DNA of 64,000 nt from assembly GCA_964531375.1 (NCBI GenBank), contig CAZHDO010000001.1:2282-66281 (forward strand). The letters run 5' to 3'. A program made the position numbers and the translations under genes. The stretch is from an uncultured Candidatus Saccharibacteria bacterium (GTDB lineage Bacteria > Patescibacteriota > Minisyncoccia > Phycocordibacterales > UBA12445). Positions 6,215 to 30,490 of the stretch are shown piece after piece. Within the stretch, counting starts at the first letter, position 1, and every line of letters begins with the position of its first letter. The notes below the pieces were generated by a model that worked only from the letters and a program-made list of their open reading frames with translations, was not told where the DNA came from and searched no databases.

Positions 6215-6253
6215 GAAACGTCGTTTCCTTTTTGGAAACGACGTTTCTTATTT
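6215..6253 (+). terminator. Rho-independent terminator after groEL (perfect 14-bp stem, 5-nt loop, T-tract)
   Basis: gaaacgtcgtttcc-ttttt-ggaaacgacgtttc is followed by ttattt. Confidence 0.7.
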
Positions 6254-6315
6254 ACCACTTATTCTGCCGTTTGGCGAACTTTTTATTTTAAGTATATTTT
6301 GCTATATTTATTCCT

Positions 6316-6918
6316 GTGAAAACATACGCATTTATAGACGTACAAAATACTTCCATTACAACTGAAAAATTATTAGGATTTAAGGTGGACTTGGTAAGGT
6401 TTTATGATTTTTTAAGGAAAGATTGGGGATGTGATGAAGTTTATTTGTATACGGGTTTCGATAAAAATGACATAGAATTAATTGAGGATTTAAAAACCCT
6501 GAAAGATAATGGATGTTTTGTTAGAGCAAAAGAATTTTGTTTATATAAAAATAAAGATAAAAGAATAAATATTATTTGTCCAAAATGTCAAAATAAATTT
6601 AGTAATGATGTCGATATGGGTTATAATAAAAAAGCAAATTGCGATGTAGATCTGACGGCAGATGCGATTGGTGTCGTCGAATCAGGAGACGAGGTATTTC
6701 TTTTTTCTGGCGATGGCGATTTTGAATATTTAGTAAGAAAATTTGTAGGAAATAAAACCTCTGTGCATATTGTTTCCAGTGCAAAGAAAATTAGAACAAG
6801 CTCTTCTTATTTTACTTCCAGGTTTTCAACAAAATTGAGGAAATTAATAAATGAATCAGGAAAGCCAGTCAATTTTATTGATATAAATAATATTAAGTTT
6901 AAGATAAATAGGGCCTAA
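6316..6918 (+). CDS. NYN-domain (LabA-like, PIN-related) protein with an embedded CxxC...C Zn-ribbon; GTG start
   Basis: The N-terminus YAFIDVQN...VYLYTG and the later DVDLTADAI...FLFSGDGDFEYLV resemble the NYN/DUF88 fold (acidic nuclease-like residues). CPKCQNKF...NCDVD is an inserted zinc ribbon. A paralog lies at 27697-28203. Confidence 0.55.
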   Translation: MKTYAFIDVQNTSITTEKLLGFKVDLVRFYDFLRKDWGCDEVYLYTGFDKNDIELIEDLKTLKDNGCFVRAKEFCLYKNKDKRINIICPKCQNKFSNDVDMGYNKKANCDVDLTADAIGVVESGDEVFLFSGDGDFEYLVRKFVGNKTSVHIVSSAKKIRTSSSYFTSRFSTKLRKLINESGKPVNFIDINNIKFKINRA

Positions 6919-6990
6919 AAACGAAAAGGCCACGAAGCGTGACCTTTCCTAATGACCTCGTAATAGTAACAATACAAGGAAAATAAGTCA

Positions 6991-8040
6991 ATGAAATTGT
7001 TAATAATAACCCAAAAAGTAGATAAAAACGATGACATATTAGGGTTTTTTCATAATTGGCTTTTGGAATTTTCAAAGAGGTGTGAAAAATTAACTGTAAT
7101 TTGTCTGCAAAAAGGCGAATACGATTTACCGGAAAATGTTAAGGTCTTTTCTCTTGGTAAAGAAGAAGGCGAATTAAGAATTAAGTACGTCTTAAATTTT
7201 TGGAAATATATTTGGCAGGAACGCAAAAATTACGATTCAGTTTTTGTACACATGAATCCTGAATACGTTGTCTTGGGTGGGTTATTTTGGAGGTTAATTG
7301 GTAAGAAAATTTCATTATGGTATACCCACAAAAGCGTTGATTTGAAATTAAAAATAGCAGAAAAATTTTCCAATATTATTTTTACTGTTTCTAAAGAAAG
7401 TTTTCGAATGAAGACAAATAAATTAAAGGTTGTTGGACATGGTATTCCTGTTGAAAAATTTAAAAACCAAGGTAATTTAGTTTACAAAAAAGATGCTGTT
7501 TTAAAAATTATAAGTGTTGGAAGAATTACGCCGATTAAAAATCTAGACACGTTGATAAACGCCTGTGAAATTTTAAAGAAAAATGGTTTAAATTTTGCAG
7601 TTTCTTTGATCGGGCCAGTGGTGGACGAAAAAGACAGAAAGTATTTTGAATATTTAAAACAACTAATCTCAGAGAAAGATTTAGATAAAGAAATAAAATT
7701 TTTAGGAAGTATCCCAAATAATAAGCTTGCTGAATTTTATTGGCAAAACGATTTTAGTATAAATTTATGCCCAACTGGCGGGGTTGATAAAGCTATTCTT
7801 GAATCAATGGCTTCAGGACTTATTACTCTAGCTTCAAATATTGCTTTTGAGGAATATTTTGGAGAATATAAAGAAGATTTAATGTTTAAGGAAAAAGACG
7901 AAAAAGATCTTGCGGCTAAGATAATGAAATTAATTTCCACAGACGATTTAGTGAGAATTAAGAATTTTCTACTGTCTTCTGTTAAAGAAAAAACTGATTT
8001 AGATAAATTACTATTGAGAATAATTAATGAAATTAAATGA
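6991..8040 (+). CDS. Glycosyltransferase family 1 (GT4-type, GT-B fold)
   Basis: The C-terminal half has the GT4 pattern (ISVGRITPIKN...LIGPV...FLGSIPNNKLAEFY...PTGGVDKAILESMASGLITLAS). It is the first gene of the plus-strand glycan operon. Confidence 0.75.
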   Translation: MKLLIITQKVDKNDDILGFFHNWLLEFSKRCEKLTVICLQKGEYDLPENVKVFSLGKEEGELRIKYVLNFWKYIWQERKNYDSVFVHMNPEYVVLGGLFWRLIGKKISLWYTHKSVDLKLKIAEKFSNIIFTVSKESFRMKTNKLKVVGHGIPVEKFKNQGNLVYKKDAVLKIISVGRITPIKNLDTLINACEILKKNGLNFAVSLIGPVVDEKDRKYFEYLKQLISEKDLDKEIKFLGSIPNNKLAEFYWQNDFSINLCPTGGVDKAILESMASGLITLASNIAFEEYFGEYKEDLMFKEKDEKDLAAKIMKLISTDDLVRIKNFLLSSVKEKTDLDKLLLRIINEIK

Positions 8041-9092
8041 GAATTTGTTATTTTGGTATTTATAATCCAGATTATAGTCGAAATAAAATTATTATGTCTG
8101 GTTTAAGGAGTAATGGGGTCGATGTTTTAGAATGCAATACAAGAAAAAAGGGAGTTTTAAAATATTTCGATCTTGTTTTAAAACATTGGAAAATTAGAAA
8201 AAATTACGACGTGATGATTGTTGGTTATCCTGGGTTTCAGTCTGTGATTTTAGCTAGATTTTTAACAACAAAACCGTTAATTTTCGATGCTTTTTTGTCT
8301 ATGTTTGACTCTATGGTGTTGGATAGGAAAAAGGTTGCGTTAAATAGCTTTCGTGCGAAATATTTTTGGTGGTTGGATAAGATATCTATGAGTGTGGCTG
8401 ATCTGGTTTTAATAGACACAAATGAACATAAAAAATATTTATCAAAAGAGTTCGGTTTTAGTGATAAAAAAATAGAAAGGGTCTTTATTGGTGCTGATAC
8501 TGATATTTTTACTCCAAAAGAACCCAGAAAAAGTGATGGTTTTTTTAGAGTTCTATTTTTTGGTACTTATATTCCGTTGCAAGGAATAGAATATATCATT
8601 AAGGCAGCAAAAAAATTAGAGACTCGAAAAGATATAAAATTTGAAATAATCGGTAAGGGACAAGAAAAAGATAAAATACTAAAATTAACCAGCGAAATGG
8701 ATATTTTAAATATTAATTTTGTTGATAGTTTACCACAAAGAGAACTTCAAGATAGGGTTGCTTTTGCAGATGTTTGTCTTGGAATATTCGGAAATACTGA
8801 AAAAACAAAAAGAGTTATACCAAATAAGGTTTATGAGTGTGTCGCTATGAAAAAGGCCGTTATAACAGCTGATACTTTGGCAGAGAGGGAGCTTTTTGAT
8901 GAAGGTGAATTATTTTTTGTAAAAGTTGCAGATGCTGATTCTATTGTAGAAGCAATAATTAAGCTTAAGGAAAATAGTTCACTTTTGAAAAGTATTGCAG
9001 TGAGTGGGTATAATAAATTTACAAAAGAAGCTACTCCTAATAGAATAGGAATATATTTGCTCGAGATTATAAAACAAAAATATGGAAAATAA
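8037..9092 (+). CDS. Glycosyltransferase family 1 (GT4-type)
   Basis: It overlaps the upstream gene by 4 nt. The pattern is GT-B (RVLFFGTYIPLQGIEYII...IIGKGQE...IPNKVYECVAMKKAVITAD). Confidence 0.7.
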   Translation: MRICYFGIYNPDYSRNKIIMSGLRSNGVDVLECNTRKKGVLKYFDLVLKHWKIRKNYDVMIVGYPGFQSVILARFLTTKPLIFDAFLSMFDSMVLDRKKVALNSFRAKYFWWLDKISMSVADLVLIDTNEHKKYLSKEFGFSDKKIERVFIGADTDIFTPKEPRKSDGFFRVLFFGTYIPLQGIEYIIKAAKKLETRKDIKFEIIGKGQEKDKILKLTSEMDILNINFVDSLPQRELQDRVAFADVCLGIFGNTEKTKRVIPNKVYECVAMKKAVITADTLAERELFDEGELFFVKVADADSIVEAIIKLKENSSLLKSIAVSGYNKFTKEATPNRIGIYLLEIIKQKYGK

Positions 9093-26006: not shown

Positions 26007-27314
26007 TTATTTTGTTTTAATTGTTTTGTAATTCAAAATTGATGATAGTTTGCCCATTTTTTTCCATCTGTAATCGAGCCTATAATTATTTGCGTCTGTT
26101 ATTTCAAAACTAAGATTTTTTTTAAGGTCAACATATTCTACAAAAGGCTTTTGCAGGGAGACTTCAATATAGTATTGATTTATATTTAAGAGGTTTTTGG
26201 GTACTTCTATCGTTGTTTTATAAACTCCTGGCTGGTAATCTTTAAGACAAGGAGAACCGTCTGTTTCAGAAGAATGCAGTATTAATTCCCCGGAAACTCC
26301 ATAGAATAGTACACAAATTAATGCTTTAGGTAATGGTTCTTTAATTAAATATTCAATTTCTATCGAAAAATTTTCATCAACAGGAATAAAGTTACTTGGG
26401 TCATTGTTCTTGTTTAGAAAAGAAATTTTTGTTATTTGATGTTTTTTACTGGGATCTTCTTCATAAGAGCTAACTGATTCGCTTTTATTGCTGGATAGAT
26501 TGATATAGTCCTGGATTGCTTCAGATGTTTCTTTAAAGCTTTTAATTTGACCTTTTTCTAAAACAATACATTTTTGGCAGAGGTTTTGAATTGCACTTAT
26601 GTTGTGACTAACAAAGAGAACCGTTCGTCCTCCTTCTTTTGATATCTCTCCCATTTTTCCGAGACATTTTTTTTGAAATTCAGCATCACCAACTGCAAGT
26701 ACCTCGTCTATTATAAGAATGTCTGGTTCCATGTGTGCTGCCACAGAGAAGGCGAGGCGGACATACATCCCCGACGAGTAGTATTTAACAGGTGTGTCTA
26801 GGAATTTTTCAATCCCAGCGAACTCTACGATTGTGTCAAATTTTTCACCAATTTCTTTTTGTGACATACCGAGAATAGCTCCATTTAAGAAAATATTCTC
26901 TCTTCCTGAGAGTTCTGGATGAAATCCTGTGCCAACCTCAAGAAGTGAACCGACTTTTCCATGAAGTTTTATTTCACCATGCGTTGGCGGTGTTATTTGA
27001 GATAAAATTTTTAGTAAGGTTGATTTTCCGGCACCATTTCTTCCAATTATTCCAATTACTTCACCTTTTTTAACCTCAAAACTCACGTCTTTAAGTGCCC
27101 AAAATTCTTCCTTGGTTTCCATGCCAGCCACCTGTTTGGCTTTCTTTTTTAGAAAAGCAAAAGGGGAGGTTATTGCATTTGTAAGAATATCTCGTAGTGC
27201 AATATAATTACCTCTTTGGTGTGTAATGTTATATCTCTTGCTTATGTTTTTTACTTCAATAATTGGATGGTCCATTTTTTTATTAATATTATTCTCTTTT
27301 GATTCTTTGTGCAC
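26007..27314 (-). CDS. wzt: Polysaccharide ABC exporter ATP-binding protein (Wzt/TagH-type) with a C-terminal extension of about 170 aa resembling the carbohydrate-binding domain of Wzt
   Basis: Walker A is GIIGRNGAGKSTLLKIL, the signature is YSSGMYVRLAF, and Walker B is ILIIDEVLAVGD. The C-terminal extension is predicted beta-rich. Confidence 0.85.
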   Translation of the reverse strand: MHKESKENNINKKMDHPIIEVKNISKRYNITHQRGNYIALRDILTNAITSPFAFLKKKAKQVAGMETKEEFWALKDVSFEVKKGEVIGIIGRNGAGKSTLLKILSQITPPTHGEIKLHGKVGSLLEVGTGFHPELSGRENIFLNGAILGMSQKEIGEKFDTIVEFAGIEKFLDTPVKYYSSGMYVRLAFSVAAHMEPDILIIDEVLAVGDAEFQKKCLGKMGEISKEGGRTVLFVSHNISAIQNLCQKCIVLEKGQIKSFKETSEAIQDYINLSSNKSESVSSYEEDPSKKHQITKISFLNKNNDPSNFIPVDENFSIEIEYLIKEPLPKALICVLFYGVSGELILHSSETDGSPCLKDYQPGVYKTTIEVPKNLLNINQYYIEVSLQKPFVEYVDLKKNLSFEITDANNYRLDYRWKKMGKLSSILNYKTIKTK

Positions 27315-27356
27315 TTGATATTTTTATCTATTTTTTGCTATTCTATATGCATAAGT

Positions 27357-27435
27357 GCCTTCGGGCTTGCCCTGCGAAAGCAGGGAGAAAAGTGAAAGGT
27401 CGTCAAAGTATATCTTTGACGGCTTTTCTTATTCT
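27357..27435 (+). ncRNA. Candidate small structured RNA or regulatory element (antisense to the wzm-NYN-wzt transcript), with promoter-like TTGATA-18-TATTCT at 27315-27344
   Basis: Going 5' to 3' on the plus strand: a cUUCGg hairpin (gcc-ttcg-ggc), a 6-7-bp stem capped by a GNRA tetraloop (ccctgc-gaaa-gcaggg), then a terminator-like hairpin (gtcgtcaaag-tatat-ctttgacggc) followed by ttttctt. The canonical UNCG/GNRA loops exist only in the plus orientation. Confidence 0.25.
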
Positions 27436-27615
27436 TTCGAAAATTTCCATATCTATAAAACTTATTTTATTAGCAAAACGCTTAATATCAATGACTCGCA
27501 TTTGCGAAATAATAGCGGAGGCTTCTTTGCCTTCTATTGCATGGTATAGCTTTTCGCTATCCATATCATGAATTTCTATCTTTTTTTTATTCCATTTATC
27601 GAATTCTTTTTTCAT
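27403..27615 (-). CDS. Small hypothetical protein (70 aa) between the NYN gene and wzt
   Basis: An ORF with charged, coiled composition, co-directional with and 80 nt downstream of the NYN gene. No recognisable motif. Confidence 0.3.
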   Translation of the reverse strand: MKKEFDKWNKKKIEIHDMDSEKLYHAIEGKEASAIISQMRVIDIKRFANKISFIDMEIFERIRKAVKDIL

Positions 27616-27696
27616 TTTTGTTTGACTTTTATTTTTTGGTTTGATATTATTATTAGGTATCCAAAATAGAAAAGAGTGCCCTGTAAGGTTCCGTCC

Positions 27697-28203
27697 TTAT
27701 GGGGTCTTTTCTTTTTTATACTCTAGAATTTCTTTTGAATTGTTTAAAAATCTGAGGTAGCTTTTTAGTATGTCAACTTTAAACAATGCTGAAAATTGTG
27801 ATTTATTCGGTATCGTTATAAAACCTAATTTATTTTTTTTGAGTAGATATTCAACTAAACAATAAAAGTCCCCATCTCCTGTTACAATGACCGCTTTGTC
27901 AAAATTATTAAATTGAATCATTGTATGCAGTACTAATTCCGCATCGCAGTTGCCTTTTGTGGTTCCATCTTGGTGTCCTAACGTTGGTTTAAAGATACAT
28001 TTATAACCTGTGCGATTAAGAAAATCGTACATTTTTTTATTACTTTCGACATAGCCAATAAATAGATAGGCCTCTTTTATTCCATATTTTTCTTTCAAAT
28101 AAATACGGAAACGCGCAAAATCTAAAATCCAACCCTGACTGCGTATGTTTAGGTTAAGGTTTTGACTATCTATAAAAGCGTAATTTTTTTCTTCTTTTCT
28201 CAT
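27697..28203 (-). CDS. NYN-domain (LabA-like) protein, paralog of 6316-6918
   Basis: YAFIDSQNLN...AYLFIGY...GNCDAELVLH...AVIVTGDGDFYCLVEYL shares the NYN/DUF88 pattern with the first paralog (YAFIDVQN...DVDL...SGDGDFEYLV). Confidence 0.6.
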   Translation of the reverse strand: MRKEEKNYAFIDSQNLNLNIRSQGWILDFARFRIYLKEKYGIKEAYLFIGYVESNKKMYDFLNRTGYKCIFKPTLGHQDGTTKGNCDAELVLHTMIQFNNFDKAVIVTGDGDFYCLVEYLLKKNKLGFITIPNKSQFSALFKVDILKSYLRFLNNSKEILEYKKEKTP

Positions 28204-28221
28204 TTTATTACCTTTCTCTTG

Positions 28222-29040
28222 TTATATTACATCTGCGAAATACCTCTCTGTTTTTTTGAAAGAATATGTTCCAAAGGCGAGTAGCGCGAGACAAGCGATA
28301 AGGGAAATAAAGATAAGATTCCAGTTAATTACAGCTGTATTCAATATAGCAGCTCTCGCGTTTTGAATTACCCCTGTCATTGGGTTTATGGCTAAAAGCC
28401 AGGAATATTCTCCCGCTATACTTGCAGGATAGATTACGGGAGTAAGATACATTAACATTTGAACAAAGAACGGTAGAATATATCTAAGGTCTCTGTATTT
28501 CACATTTATTGAAGCTAGAAAAAGTCCTAAGCCGACTGAAGCCATAAAGGTTATCAATAGAAGAAGTGGTATTATTAATACTCCAATTAAATTAGGCATA
28601 AAACCGTAATATATCATTAGAACTCCAAGAACAAGAAAGGCAATAGAAAAATCTACTATTTTTGTTAGAACAGAAGAGATAGGGAGGATCAGACGAGGAA
28701 AGTAAACTTTTGTTATAATAGCTTGGTTTGATATTAGACAATTGCTTGTGTCGCCGAGCGCGCTAGAAAAGAAATTCCAAAATAAAAGTCCTGTGTATAT
28801 AAAAATTGGGTAGGGAACATTATCAGATGGCATTTTCGCTAGGTTTCCGAAGAATACAGTAAAGACAAACATCGTCATGAGCGGTTGAAATATGGCCCAT
28901 CCGGCTCCTACTATTGTTTGCTTGTATCTAACCTTAAGGTCTCTCCATGTAAAAAAGTACATTAATTCTTTGTAGGCCCAAAGTTCGCGGATATCATTCC
29001 AGCTAAACATTTTTTTGGGCTTTATAATTGTTGTTGCCAT
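28222..29040 (-). CDS. wzm: Polysaccharide ABC exporter permease (ABC-2 type, Wzm/TagG-like)
   Basis: 272 aa with 6 predicted TM helices. It starts with the ABC-2 hallmark ...ELWAYKELMYFFTWRDLKVRYKQTIVGAGWAIFQPL. Confidence 0.8.
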   Translation of the reverse strand: MATTIIKPKKMFSWNDIRELWAYKELMYFFTWRDLKVRYKQTIVGAGWAIFQPLMTMFVFTVFFGNLAKMPSDNVPYPIFIYTGLLFWNFFSSALGDTSNCLISNQAIITKVYFPRLILPISSVLTKIVDFSIAFLVLGVLMIYYGFMPNLIGVLIIPLLLLITFMASVGLGLFLASINVKYRDLRYILPFFVQMLMYLTPVIYPASIAGEYSWLLAINPMTGVIQNARAAILNTAVINWNLIFISLIACLALLAFGTYSFKKTERYFADVI

Positions 29041-29065
29041 TTTAATTATTTATTTATGTTTTATT

Positions 29066-29314
29066 CTACCACTTATTTATTTTCTTAACGACTTTTTTCT
29101 TTAATTTTAGGTAAGAGTCGACTGCTTCTTTTTCGACTGTAGGGGATACGAGTCTAAGAATTTCTTTCCCCAGTATTCTATATTGTCCACCGACTTTATT
29201 TGCTCTTATAAGTCCTTTTTTTAAAAGGCGCTTTATAGTGCTCGTACTTATCTTTAATAAGTCTTGTGTTTCTGCTGTTGTATATACGATATTTTTCTTT
29301 ATTTCTCTATCCAT
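29066..29314 (-). CDS. Small helix-turn-helix DNA-binding protein (excisionase/MerR-like HTH_17 family)
   Basis: YTTAETQDLLKISTSTIKRLLKKGLIRANKVGGQYRI is an HTH_17 motif. It is divergent from the RhuM/Fic gene. Confidence 0.55.
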   Translation of the reverse strand: MDREIKKNIVYTTAETQDLLKISTSTIKRLLKKGLIRANKVGGQYRILGKEILRLVSPTVEKEAVDSYLKLKKKVVKKINKW

Positions 29315-29343
29315 AACTTGCTATCTATTGTACTACAACCAGA

Positions 29344-29363
29344 AAAGGTGTCAAAAGGTGTCA
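29344..29363. promoter_or_regulatory. Tandem direct repeat aaaggtgtca x2 in the divergent promoter region (candidate operator); extended -10 tgatataat at about 29390-29398
   Basis: A perfect 10-bp tandem duplication sits between the divergently oriented HTH gene and the RhuM/Fic gene. Confidence 0.35.
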
Positions 29364-29452
29364 GGTTGTTTTTGAGTTTTTGGGGAAATTTGATATAATT
29401 ACAATAAGCTTTGTAACCAAAAACAATCTGTTGCGGTTTAAATAAGAGAAGA

Positions 29453-30490
29453 ATGTTTTTAAATAAAATGAAAAAAGAAAATAAGAATATTGGGGAAAAT
29501 TTAAATAAGAGTGAGATTGTTATTTATCAAGATAAAGATAAACGTATCTTTGTAGACGCTGTTCTTGATGAAGATACTGTTTGGTTAAATTTAGATCAAA
29601 TGTCTGTCTTGTTTGATAGGGATAAGTCTGTTATTTCTCGACATATTAAAAATATTTTTGTAGAAAAGGAATTGAGCTATAGTTCAGTTGTTGCAAATTT
29701 TGCAACAACTGCCGCTGATGGAAAAACGTATAAGGTGGATTACTATAATTTAGATATTATTATCTCTGTGGGTTATAGGGTTAAATCAAAAAATGGCGTA
29801 AGTTTTAGAATTTGGGCGACAAAAACTCTCAAGGATCACATTATTAAAGGGTATACATTGAATGCTGATAGGTTAGAAGAAATAAAAGCAAAACAGTTTT
29901 GTGAATTTGAACAAGCGGTTGGTTTGATTAAAAAGACAATAGAAACTAGACAGCTTTCCGGAGGTGAGGAAAGCGGCCTTTTAAAGGTGATTACAGAATA
30001 CACTAACTCCTGGTTGTTATTGCAAAAATACGATGAAGATGGTTTATTTTTGCCAAAGAAGGCAAAAAAATCTTCGTTTTCACTCGAATATGATTTTGCG
30101 TTAAAGGCAATTTCTAATTTAAAGCAAGATTTGATTAAAAAAGGCGAGGCGAGCGCTCTTTTTGGTACAGAAAGATCAAGTCTTCAGGGGATAATAGGAA
30201 ATATTTATCAGACTTTCGGAGGCTCGGAATTATATTTGAGCATAGAAGAGAAGGCGGCACATCTTCTTTATTTTATAATTAAGGACCATCCTTTTTCAGA
30301 TGGAAATAAACGCATTGGTTCTTTTTTGTTTATCGTTTTTCTGGCCCAGAATAAACATTTACTTAAGAGTAACGGCGATAAGAAGATAAATGATAACGCT
30401 TTAGTGGCTATTGCTTTACTTGTGGCGGAAAGTGATCCATTGCACAAAGACACATTGATTAAACTGATAACTAACTTAATTATTGATTAA
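29453..30490 (+). CDS. RhuM-family N-terminal domain fused to a C-terminal Fic/Doc (death-on-curing type) domain
   Basis: GKTYKVDYYNLDIIISVGYRVKSKNGVSFRIWATKTL is the RhuM signature. HPFSDGNKRIGSF matches the Doc/Fic motif HxFx(D/N)GNKR. Confidence 0.7.
   Translation: MFLNKMKKENKNIGENLNKSEIVIYQDKDKRIFVDAVLDEDTVWLNLDQMSVLFDRDKSVISRHIKNIFVEKELSYSSVVANFATTAADGKTYKVDYYNLDIIISVGYRVKSKNGVSFRIWATKTLKDHIIKGYTLNADRLEEIKAKQFCEFEQAVGLIKKTIETRQLSGGEESGLLKVITEYTNSWLLLQKYDEDGLFLPKKAKKSSFSLEYDFALKAISNLKQDLIKKGEASALFGTERSSLQGIIGNIYQTFGGSELYLSIEEKAAHLLYFIIKDHPFSDGNKRIGSFLFIVFLAQNKHLLKSNGDKKINDNALVAIALLVAESDPLHKDTLIKLITNLIID

Follow-up and report, generated by a model that had tools for sequence, protein, structure and literature searches.

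The DNA considered here, referred to as the window, is a stretch of 64,000 nucleotides from an uncultured Candidatus Saccharibacteria bacterium (GenBank assembly GCA_964531375.1, contig CAZHDO010000001.1, positions 2,282 to 66,281 of the forward strand); positions are those of the window unless another locus, cited by an L number, is named. It carries a glycan export operon in which the permease gene wzm and the ATPase gene wzt, which adjoin each other in Wzm/Wzt exporter operons, are set apart by 946 bp. The intervening DNA is made up of two compact, self-contained cassettes, each consisting of a ribonuclease-family gene and a convergent gene for a predicted small RNA. One cassette holds NYN1, which encodes a LabA-like NYN domain; the other holds ORF70, an open reading frame (ORF) of 70 amino acids (aa). 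The two predicted RNAs are termed as-NYN1 and as-MazF. A first-pass annotation, made from the letters alone, had put a NYN gene (27697-28203) and a 70-aa ORF (27403-27615) between wzm and wzt, and all of its reading frames are present. In the direction of operon transcription the features are:

28222-29040, minus strand: wzm, ABC-2 permease (Pfam ABC2_membrane, 1.7e-17; NCBIfam Wzm/RfbD-like)
27276-28221: inserted segment of 946 bp, from the wzm stop to the wzt start (from the wzm/wzt spacing in Wzm relatives)
27697-28203, minus strand: NYN1, intact LabA-like NYN (PIN-like) nuclease-domain gene, 168 aa (Pfam NYN PF01936, E 2.3e-14)
27657-27717, plus strand: predicted as-NYN1 small RNA, about 60 nt (nhmmer E 2e-15; covariation; fold energy)
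27678-27705, plus strand, followed by a T-run: as-NYN1 intrinsic terminator stem (terminator scan)
27622-27650, plus strand: as-NYN1 promoter, TTGACT, 17 nt, TG-extended TATTAT (promoter scan; both hexamers conserved, 65 loci)
27403-27615, minus strand: ORF70, 70 aa, remnant of a solo MazF/PemK-like toxin gene (alignment to L157, L165 and L125)
27351-27436, plus strand: predicted as-MazF small RNA (fold -39 kcal/mol, z -6.4; terminator scan)
27315-27344, plus strand: as-MazF promoter, TTGATA, 18 nt, TATTCT (promoter scan; like layout in 8 other MazF-like loci)
26007-27275, minus strand: wzt, ABC ATPase with a Wzt_C-like domain (ABC_tran, 1.2e-23; N-termini of relatives)

How does this arrangement compare with that of related operons? 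A metagenome scan with Wzm gave 80 loci at 66-79% identity, 72 of which also carry wzt. In 65 of these 72 only 2-20 nt separate the wzm stop from the wzt ATG, with the protein starting ME.PIIE.KN, and none of the 72 has a NYN gene at the junction. From this spacing the window wzt most likely starts at ATG 27275 (MDHPIIEVKN) and not at GTG 27314, as the span of 26007-27314 in the first-pass annotation would have it, and this start places the ends of the inserted segment at 27276 and 28221. Since the two genes are adjacent in 65 of the 72 relatives and no relative has NYN between them, the segment represents an insertion. The earlier view that the separation of wzm and wzt is unusual is thereby borne out, and the wzm-NYN-wzt order is not a widespread housekeeping arrangement. 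The cassettes are closely fitted, as each starts a few nt after the upstream stop and finishes at a -35 box just before the next start codon. NYN1 starts 18 nt past the wzm stop, and the -35 box of the as-NYN1 promoter is 6 nt from the ORF70 start codon.

The small-RNA gene of the NYN1 cassette was seen in a comparison of 3' flanks as a conserved non-coding element that lies directly 3' of NYN in unrelated contexts. A nucleotide profile of the element matches 78 of about 84 non-redundant NYN1-family loci, and every match lies on the strand opposite NYN, right against its 3' end; in the window it covers 27622-27721 (E 2e-15). An alignment of 65 copies (A2), read on the antisense strand, begins with a TTGAC -35 box (56 of the 65), followed by an unconserved spacer of mostly 16-17 nt and a TG-extended TAnnnT -10 box. 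A conserved RNA, 5'-AUCACCAAYGGAAAAGAUCACCC, begins 6-8 nt past the -10 box, and the 3' part of the consensus consists of a hairpin and then CUUUUCUUUUUU. The extended hairpin that RNAalifold predicts has 15 pairs, with 98.9% of cells paired and compensatory double changes in 10 of the 15, values that were matched by none of 500 shuffles. The alignment counts 114 G-U pairs and 11 mismatches when read antisense to NYN, and 2 G-U pairs and 123 mismatches when read in the NYN sense, an asymmetry which assigns the structure to the antisense strand. In the window, as-NYN1 is ordered as a 5' tail, the extended hairpin and a U-tract, has a predicted fold of -21.8 kcal/mol (z -5.0), and reaches into NYN1 to cover its stop and final 6 codons (27697-27717). 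The terminator U-tract is the reverse complement of the NYN C-terminal Lys/Glu codons, and the hairpin nucleotides are kept although the NYN stop varies in frame and position (C-termini KKEKAP*, KKRPHKDETL* and EKAPEGRNLKG*). All seven terminator-like sites of the region are on the plus strand, antisense to the operon; the terminator scan of the region found none on the operon (sense) strand, where a T-run is also missing. With their co-orientation, this means that NYN1 and the ORF70 remnant are probably co-transcribed with the operon. The 'structured region' that had been noticed earlier between wzm and wzt corresponds to two predicted plus-strand antisense small-RNA genes, each with a promoter and a terminator.

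Several other identities were considered for the element and set aside. Rfam 15 has no match at E <= 1 in 26900-29600 of the window, and Rfam scans of consensus-like copies of the NYN small RNA gave nothing that reaches a gathering score. The trpB motif, a riboswitch candidate of Firmicutes, matched the L025 copy at 30 bits against a gathering score of 59, aligning only via the terminator-like part. The sequence 'GGACGAAACC' in the hairpin recalls the core of the hammerhead ribozyme, but there is neither a CUGAUGA box nor an Rfam match. A small sense-strand ORF after the Shine-Dalgarno (SD)-like motif GGGTGATC was rejected by inspection, as frames and lengths vary, and a sense-strand promoter for the next gene because the hexamers, about 12 nt apart when read on that strand, are properly spaced only on the antisense strand. 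That the cassette end might donate an ATG ('ATGTCAA') to the next gene is no rule, with only 4 clear ATG cases at 64 loci. As side observations, two AUCACC motifs in the small-RNA consensus (A2 columns 52-72) resemble the 16S rRNA 3' end GAUCACCUCCUU, and their counterpart in the 3' untranslated region (UTR) of the NYN mRNA is a pair of SD-like GGUGAU motifs; in the window (27659-27680, plus strand) the first AUCACC motif is degenerate (AUCCAA) and the second reads AGUGCC. At L095 (4001-4618) the NYN reading frame (205 aa) extends across the entire small-RNA gene, and its stop codon shares bases with the start codon of the ABC ATPase gene that follows (ATGA), so that coding sequence and antisense RNA overlap completely.

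The second cassette has a broken protein gene. Compared with full-length solo MazF/PemK-like proteins of 129-144 aa, ORF70 has lost about 58 core residues in frame. It matches the PemK profile at positions 70-109 only (E 0.0099; 16.5 bits, cut-off 23.1), whereas the proteins of L157 (43.9 bits, 3e-11) and L125 (41.6 bits, 1.5e-10) pass PemK_toxin. The partial match below the cut-off and the loss of the catalytic core mark ORF70 as a remnant and not as a member of the MazF/PemK family. The solo MazF-like family comprises more than 860 clusters in Patescibacteria, and there is no MazE-like neighbour in L184-L186, the three loci with called genes. The predicted as-MazF RNA contains two hairpins, GCC-UUCG-GGC and CCCUGC-GAAA-GCAGGG, and, 3' of them, a terminator (27394-27428) reaching into the stop and final codons of ORF70. 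A convergent small-RNA unit of this kind is present at nine of nine MazF-like loci (L157 248-760; L165 5812-6330; L125 4005-4620; L040 212-750; L058 639-1160; L184-L186; and 27315-27615 of the window) and consists of a sigma-70 promoter, an RNA starting AAAYGGCUUCGGCC, a second hairpin and a terminator. Over the nine loci the 5' hairpin is conserved, the second hairpin covaries and the terminator overlaps the toxin stop; Rfam has no match for this RNA. The solo MazF proteins of Patescibacteria and their convergent RNA may represent an RNA-antitoxin MazF family.

A NYN gene following groEL forms, with its predicted small-RNA unit, a third cassette of like design:

6316-6918, plus strand: NYN2, 200 aa, the other NYN paralog, with a CxxC-bearing insert, after groEL (Pfam NYN, 7.7e-10)
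6917-6991, minus strand: putative NYN2 convergent small-RNA unit (promoter and terminator scan; fold z -3.7)

The promoter of the unit (TTGACT, 17 nt, TACTAT; 6991-6963) has a -35 box that overlaps the first base of the next ATG (6991-6993); the RNA would span about 6956-6917, with a terminator at 6949-6923. Three NYN2-family loci of other genomes (L177-L179) have a promoter like that of the window unit and a related RNA of about 45 nt, GUCMUUAG-AAAAGGUCGCG-CUUC-GCGGCCUUUU, whose stem differs from that of the window by a compensatory change. As the two NYN proteins are only 26% identical (E 1e-11; distant paralogs), the like unit of the NYN2 family indicates that the association of NYN with a small RNA has outlived that divergence. 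Upstream, groEL is followed by a strong terminator (6215-6247, plus strand) and a promoter-like site (6271-6298), and the NYN2 copy thus appears to have its own promoter, unlike NYN1, 18 nt behind wzm.

NYN1 and NYN2 are members of the LabA-like NYN family by sequence and fold, and are predicted nucleases. Both pass PF01936 (54.6 bits for NYN1 and 39.9 bits for NYN2, cut-off 24.2), which upholds the family assignment made from the letters. The FIDxQN and GDGDF motifs noted at that stage are kept in both proteins and are invariant across both families. Invariant acidic residues, as a metal-binding PIN-like active site would require, are D12, D87, E89, D110 and D112 in the NYN1 family (28 aligned sequences) and D8, D110, D116, D133 and D135 in the NYN2 family (20 sequences, alignment A6). 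The AlphaFold2 model of NYN1 (pLDDT 81, pTM 0.80) shows a PIN-like three-layer alpha/beta fold and has 2qip as its top and sole convincing PDB match in Foldseek (E 3.7e-7, TM 0.73), and 2qip is likewise the single match of an NYN1 profile search of PDB (5.7e-13). NYN2 had been described as a paralog after groEL with an inserted Zn-ribbon; paralogy and position hold, and the ribbon does not, as the insert has one invariant CxxC (C88, C91), no second CxxC is present in the alignment of 20 sequences, and the other invariant cysteines are C39 and C109. Clustered at 90% identity, the NYN1 family numbers more than 8000 clusters that are 60-72% identical to the window protein; the NYN2 family has 374 clusters. 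The NYN1 family is spread across many candidate phyla of Patescibacteria and includes a RefSeq record titled Emticicia sp. BO119 (Bacteroidota), in which a 59%-identical NYN is accompanied by a recognizable antisense small-RNA unit (L063 4001-4576). This record may possibly represent a culturable host and a sign of transfer outside Patescibacteria. An identical NYN1 protein is found in GCA_037130235.1, with the same gene order as in the window.

The neighbours of NYN differ by locus (SpoVR/NYN/ArgRS, TGT/NYN/UvrB, TrmB/NYN/ABC ATPase, ArgRS..NYN/IleRS). Across 77 loci, the 73 downstream genes represent 94 Pfam families and the 75 upstream genes 66; the commonest, the GT4 glycosyltransferases, is found at only 4-5 loci, and there is no conserved protein partner or small neighbour. 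NYN is co-oriented with the upstream gene in 52 of 77 cases and with the downstream gene in 56 of 73. It often begins a few nt after the upstream stop, and about one-third of downstream genes begin at most 20 nt from the end of the unit. Within a shared Tmk...ArgRS...IleRS block its position differs between L001 and L014. NYN modules occur in about 90 different neighbourhoods, and the two NYN genes that were thought to frame the glycan island do not stand as an arrangement of their own. A phage origin was rejected, as there are only 2 matches in IMG/VR viral contigs. Beside these contexts, two observations concern the IleRS gene. At L014 (5671-6577) a full-length T-box leader match, sub-threshold at 38 bits against 93 (E 6.5e-7), lies upstream of the NYN cassette, with IleRS after it, and the cassette may have been inserted between leader and gene. 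The related locus L001 has upstream of IleRS only a long hairpin; this near-perfect hairpin of about 100 nt (8951-9051) matches numerous miRNA precursor models of plants and animals, but only by virtue of being a long inverted repeat.

Copies of these modules are often multiple, and some are decayed, as would befit a selfish element. ORF70 is broken, although the antisense RNA gene belonging to it seems intact, the MazF-like copy of L040 has an in-frame stop, and L017 (1406-1500) holds an orphan NYN-associated small RNA with only the last few NYN C-terminal codons. A second, diverged NYN (37-38% identity) with its own small RNA lies within a few kb at L021 (1085-1672) and L035 (6841-7371). The modules also recur in settings like that of the window. 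L026, from an Azambacteria metagenome-assembled genome, has the order HTH-gmd-fcl-wzm-NYN-small RNA-wzt, and L095 has a distant trio of ABC-2 permease, NYN and ATPase. At L125 a remnant of the NYN 3' end and hairpin lies right behind wzm (local alignment z = 15); the small-RNA profile search of the 80 Wzm loci gave no match, and this remnant was seen only by local alignment. The L026 Wzm is the most distant of 73 from the window Wzm, and each of the two has closer relatives that are free of NYN, which argues that occupancy of the junction is not one inherited event. The window NYN1 shares 71% identity with its counterparts at L014 and L001, whose contexts are unrelated, but only 62% with that of L026. 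At four loci (L028 4001-5643, L030 4001-5706, L067 4001-5632 and L070 4001-5685) an NYN1-type cassette is immediately upstream of an ortholog (35-49% identity) of the window glycosyltransferase gene 6991-8040, a slot that is filled in the window by the NYN2 cassette (6316-8040). The recurrence in glycan clusters suggests that a permissive or preferred site has been entered repeatedly, not that the modules have a conserved operon function. Since modules do recur at this type of junction and cluster, the association with a glycan island that was noticed at first has some basis.

Two further features belong to the operon itself:

29066-29314, minus strand: HTH_17 gene, excisionase-type DNA-binding (Pfam HTH_17, 2.4e-11)
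29354-29327, minus strand: promoter of the HTH-wzm operon, TTGACA, 16 nt, TACAAT (promoter scan; strong)

A homolog of the HTH gene is found within the locus in 28 of the 80 Wzm relatives, mostly immediately upstream of wzm; with the promoter upstream of HTH in the window, this points to an ancestral operon HTH-wzm-wzt-... in which HTH is the first gene. The Wzt_C match of wzt, at 28.3 bits, is just under the Pfam cut-off of 30.4. Seven Wzm relatives with a gapped wzm/wzt junction hold other small genes there. Such inserts (L105 5636-6177; L113 1835-2298; L125 5434-6275; L159 2096-2575; L124 5813-6581; L176 3194-4051) are PD-(D/E)XK 'GxxExxY' ORFs, a 23S-rRNA-IVS-type four-helix ORF or methyltransferase-like ORFs, and short direct or inverted simple repeats flank the 'GxxExxY' and 23S-rRNA-IVS-type inserts. 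The junction seems to be a general landing site for inserts. Divergent from the HTH-wzm operon is a RhuM-Fic/DOC fusion gene (29453-30490, plus strand), which matches the PADLOC candidate defence family PDC-S23 (E 1e-126) and is absent from the loci of the Wzm relatives except for one 40%-identical match on the opposite strand (L133).

What might be the function of these cassettes? With moderate confidence, we read them as toxin/antisense-RNA modules, that is, type I-like toxin-antitoxin, selfish or addiction/defence elements, which have settled in a tight operon junction. The main reason for a toxin-antitoxin-like reading of NYN is the solo MazF, which belongs to a recognized toxin family and has no protein antitoxin but the same antisense layout. 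As the cassettes fit into the narrow gaps between operon genes, they would be parasites of the exporter operon and not part of glycan export, although this particular junction has been entered more than once. In the proposed mechanism, the nuclease message would arise by read-through of the operon mRNA (NYN1) or from its own promoter (NYN2), and a constitutively made small RNA would pair with the 3' end of this message, to which it is fully complementary over about 60 nt. The duplex could lead to cleavage of the message, to destabilization of its 3' end, or both, and would keep nuclease synthesis low; were the small RNA to run out, the nuclease would be made and would cut cellular RNA. In an alternative antidote mode, type III-like, the nuclease would directly bind the conserved small RNA. 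The conserved 5' tail and loop of the RNA suggest protein recognition as well, possibly by NYN itself. A broader proposal, which we put forward tentatively, is that the NYN and solo-MazF modules are a new and very abundant class of mobile RNA-antidote toxin modules of Patescibacteria and a few other bacteria, homing to stop-start junctions and preferring the ABC-2 permease/ATPase junction and the heads of surface-glycan clusters. The enzymatic ribonuclease (RNase) would in that case be restrained by a conserved convergent small RNA, via antisense pairing, direct binding or both.

Several points weigh against this interpretation. Classical type I toxins are small membrane peptides and not 168-aa enzymes. 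The very high protein conservation across Patescibacteria also fits an essential housekeeping RNase, and the conservation of the small-RNA 5' tail and loop exceeds what simple cis-antisense pairing needs, while the 5' tail of the window copy departs from the consensus. For mobility machinery, no transposase and no repeats were found at the cassettes, and viral contigs gave only the 2 matches. Toxicity of NYN, its action as a nuclease and transcription of the small RNA are predictions. None of the LabA-like NYN (COG1432) proteins has been assayed as a nuclease, and the group is listed as 'function unknown' in a survey of the PIN superfamily (PMC5499597).

Could NYN instead be a housekeeping RNase, acting in rRNA, tRNA or mRNA 3'-end maturation, with a small RNA that tunes its level or serves as its substrate or cofactor, and with a gene order that has simply been shuffled? 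Its 60-72% identity across many candidate phyla with invariant catalytic residues would be expected of such an enzyme. Many of its neighbours are core genes (aminoacyl-tRNA synthetases, TGT, SecA), some bacterial NYN genes neighbour tRNA/rRNA maturation genes (PMC5499597), and the likeness of the two AUCACC motifs of the predicted RNA to the 16S rRNA 3' end may point the same way. We nevertheless hold this to be unlikely, given a gene that is absent from the junction in 72 relatives but present in distant ones, that shifts position inside conserved synteny, that leaves decayed and orphan copies as well as several diverged paralogs within a few kb, and that has a design identical with that of a classical toxin family, MazF. 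A role in phage defence by abortive infection is a special case of the toxin/antisense-RNA interpretation: when a phage shuts off host transcription, the unstable RNA would be lost and NYN freed, as in ToxIN. The neighbouring RhuM-Fic/DOC gene with its PDC-S23 match, and the position of the cassettes in a surface-glycan cluster, a typical variable region, favour it. The PADLOC model 'LabA-like NYN family nuclease' gives weak partial matches only (7.7e-7 and 1.4e-6), which span just the nuclease domain of a 310-position profile, and a defence assignment of NYN on this ground was rejected; most NYN loci, moreover, are among housekeeping genes and not in defence islands, so that this special case is quite improbable.

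Alternatively, the NYN RNases, as the first-pass annotation had suggested, or the antisense RNAs might act on the transcript of the glycan operon, processing it and fixing the proportion of Wzm to Wzt or the expression of the island. NYN1 and the remnant point the same way as the operon, the antisense RNAs would pair with its polycistronic mRNA in the stretch that parts wzm from wzt, and cassettes recur upstream of the glycosyltransferase 6991 ortholog (L028, L030, L067, L070) and at permease/ATPase junctions (L026, L095). This is very unlikely, however, as 65 of 72 relatives run the operon without a cassette, over 90% of NYN loci are unrelated to glycan genes, and the cassette content is constant in every context. 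That the 3' element is a bidirectional terminator combined with codon constraints of the NYN C-terminus, and not an RNA gene, is highly improbable: part of the hairpin and the U-tract do overlap coding sequence, and the sub-threshold trpB-motif match involves only the terminator-like part, but the antisense strand alone has conserved -35 and TG-extended -10 boxes, properly spaced and some 40 nt ahead of the hairpin, the G-U asymmetry between strands is strong with no T-run on the sense side, and the hairpin is kept whatever the reading frame and even in an orphan copy without the gene. Scarcely credible, finally, is the pairing of NYN with ORF70 as a two-protein toxin-antitoxin system, which the first-pass annotation had raised as a possibility. 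The two are neighbours in the same orientation, and ORF70 is small; yet ORF70 corresponds over its full length to MazF/PemK-like toxins, with about 58 core residues missing, and is a broken toxin with an antisense RNA unit of its own, and the other 77 NYN loci have no such small neighbour. Of that earlier suggestion, a toxin-antitoxin-like nature survives in the interpretation favoured here, with an RNA in place of ORF70 as the partner.

How do the proposed toxin/antisense-RNA modules compare with known systems? The Bacillus subtilis type I systems txpA/RatA and bsrG/SR4 have convergent antisense RNAs that overlap the 3' ends of the toxin genes. The cassettes are like them in having genes transcribed towards each other, a 3' overlap and an RNA with its own promoter and terminator, and in being small, multi-copy, patchy and often decayed. 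They differ in that the toxins of those systems are hydrophobic peptides of <60 aa, where the cassettes encode a 168-200-aa NYN or a 130-aa MazF-like RNase whose toxicity is a prediction, and in that the NYN RNA is far more conserved in sequence across phyla than the usual type I antitoxins. Judged by type I features, a cis-antisense RNA is indicated by the predicted promoter and terminator, the covariation and the strand asymmetry; it would share about 20 nt with the coding sequence, as well as the 3' UTR. In place of a small hydrophobic peptide there is a soluble-type alpha/beta domain protein of 168-200 aa. Type I systems with nuclease toxins are also found, such as SymE/SymR and RalR/RalA of E. 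coli. Here too a nucleic-acid-cleaving enzyme, predicted in the case of NYN, stands under an antisense or small RNA with no protein antitoxin; SymE, however, is AbrB-like and RalR a DNase, with no sequence relationship to NYN, and of the RNAs, SymR lies over the 5' end of its target, where the NYN RNA overlaps the 3' end, and RalA works in trans, together with Hfq.

In the type III systems ToxIN/AbiQ, ToxN has a Kid/MazF-like fold and is neutralized by an RNA, with a role in abortive infection. An RNase toxin with an RNA antidote is the point of likeness, and the strong conservation of the NYN RNA would fit binding by protein. ToxI, however, consists of tandem repeats upstream of toxN on the same strand, whereas the NYN RNA is single-copy, convergent and downstream at all loci, and no tandem repeats were found in the element, which places it apart from type III. 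The LabA protein of cyanobacteria is known only genetically, as a circadian output regulator. Family (PF01936, COG1432), fold and conserved acidic residues are common to it, to 2qip (VPA0982) and to NYN1; we know of no antisense RNA described for a LabA-like NYN protein. A full-text search found no literature linking NYN with Patescibacteria or these toxins with antisense RNAs. With the type II systems VapBC and MazEF the cassettes have toxin superfamilies in common (PIN-like NYN, PMC5499597; the PemK/MazF relatives of the remnant), as well as a compact, mobile, multi-copy lifestyle. They lack the type II antitoxin gene: none is conserved beside NYN, and none is called beside MazF in L184-L186. 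The predicted antisense small-RNA gene associated with NYN is previously undescribed, and its layout is type I-like yet falls outside the definitions of types I, II and III.

The interest of this locus is in the NYN- and MazF-antisense-RNA cassettes rather than in their place in an exporter operon. Patescibacteria make up a large share of bacterial diversity, and to our knowledge their small RNAs and their toxin-antitoxin and defence repertoire are almost uncharted. A covariation-supported small-RNA family is proposed here to stand beside thousands of NYN genes, and a sister RNA beside solo MazF genes. For annotation, NYN and MazF genes inside Patescibacteria operons would be taken as inserted cassettes and not as operon functions. 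If the toxin/antisense-RNA interpretation is true, it would offer a first functional handle on the uncharacterized LabA-like NYN nucleases and explain how 'orphan' MazF toxins without MazE are controlled, and the range of toxins under antisense-RNA control would widen from small peptides to enzymatic RNases.

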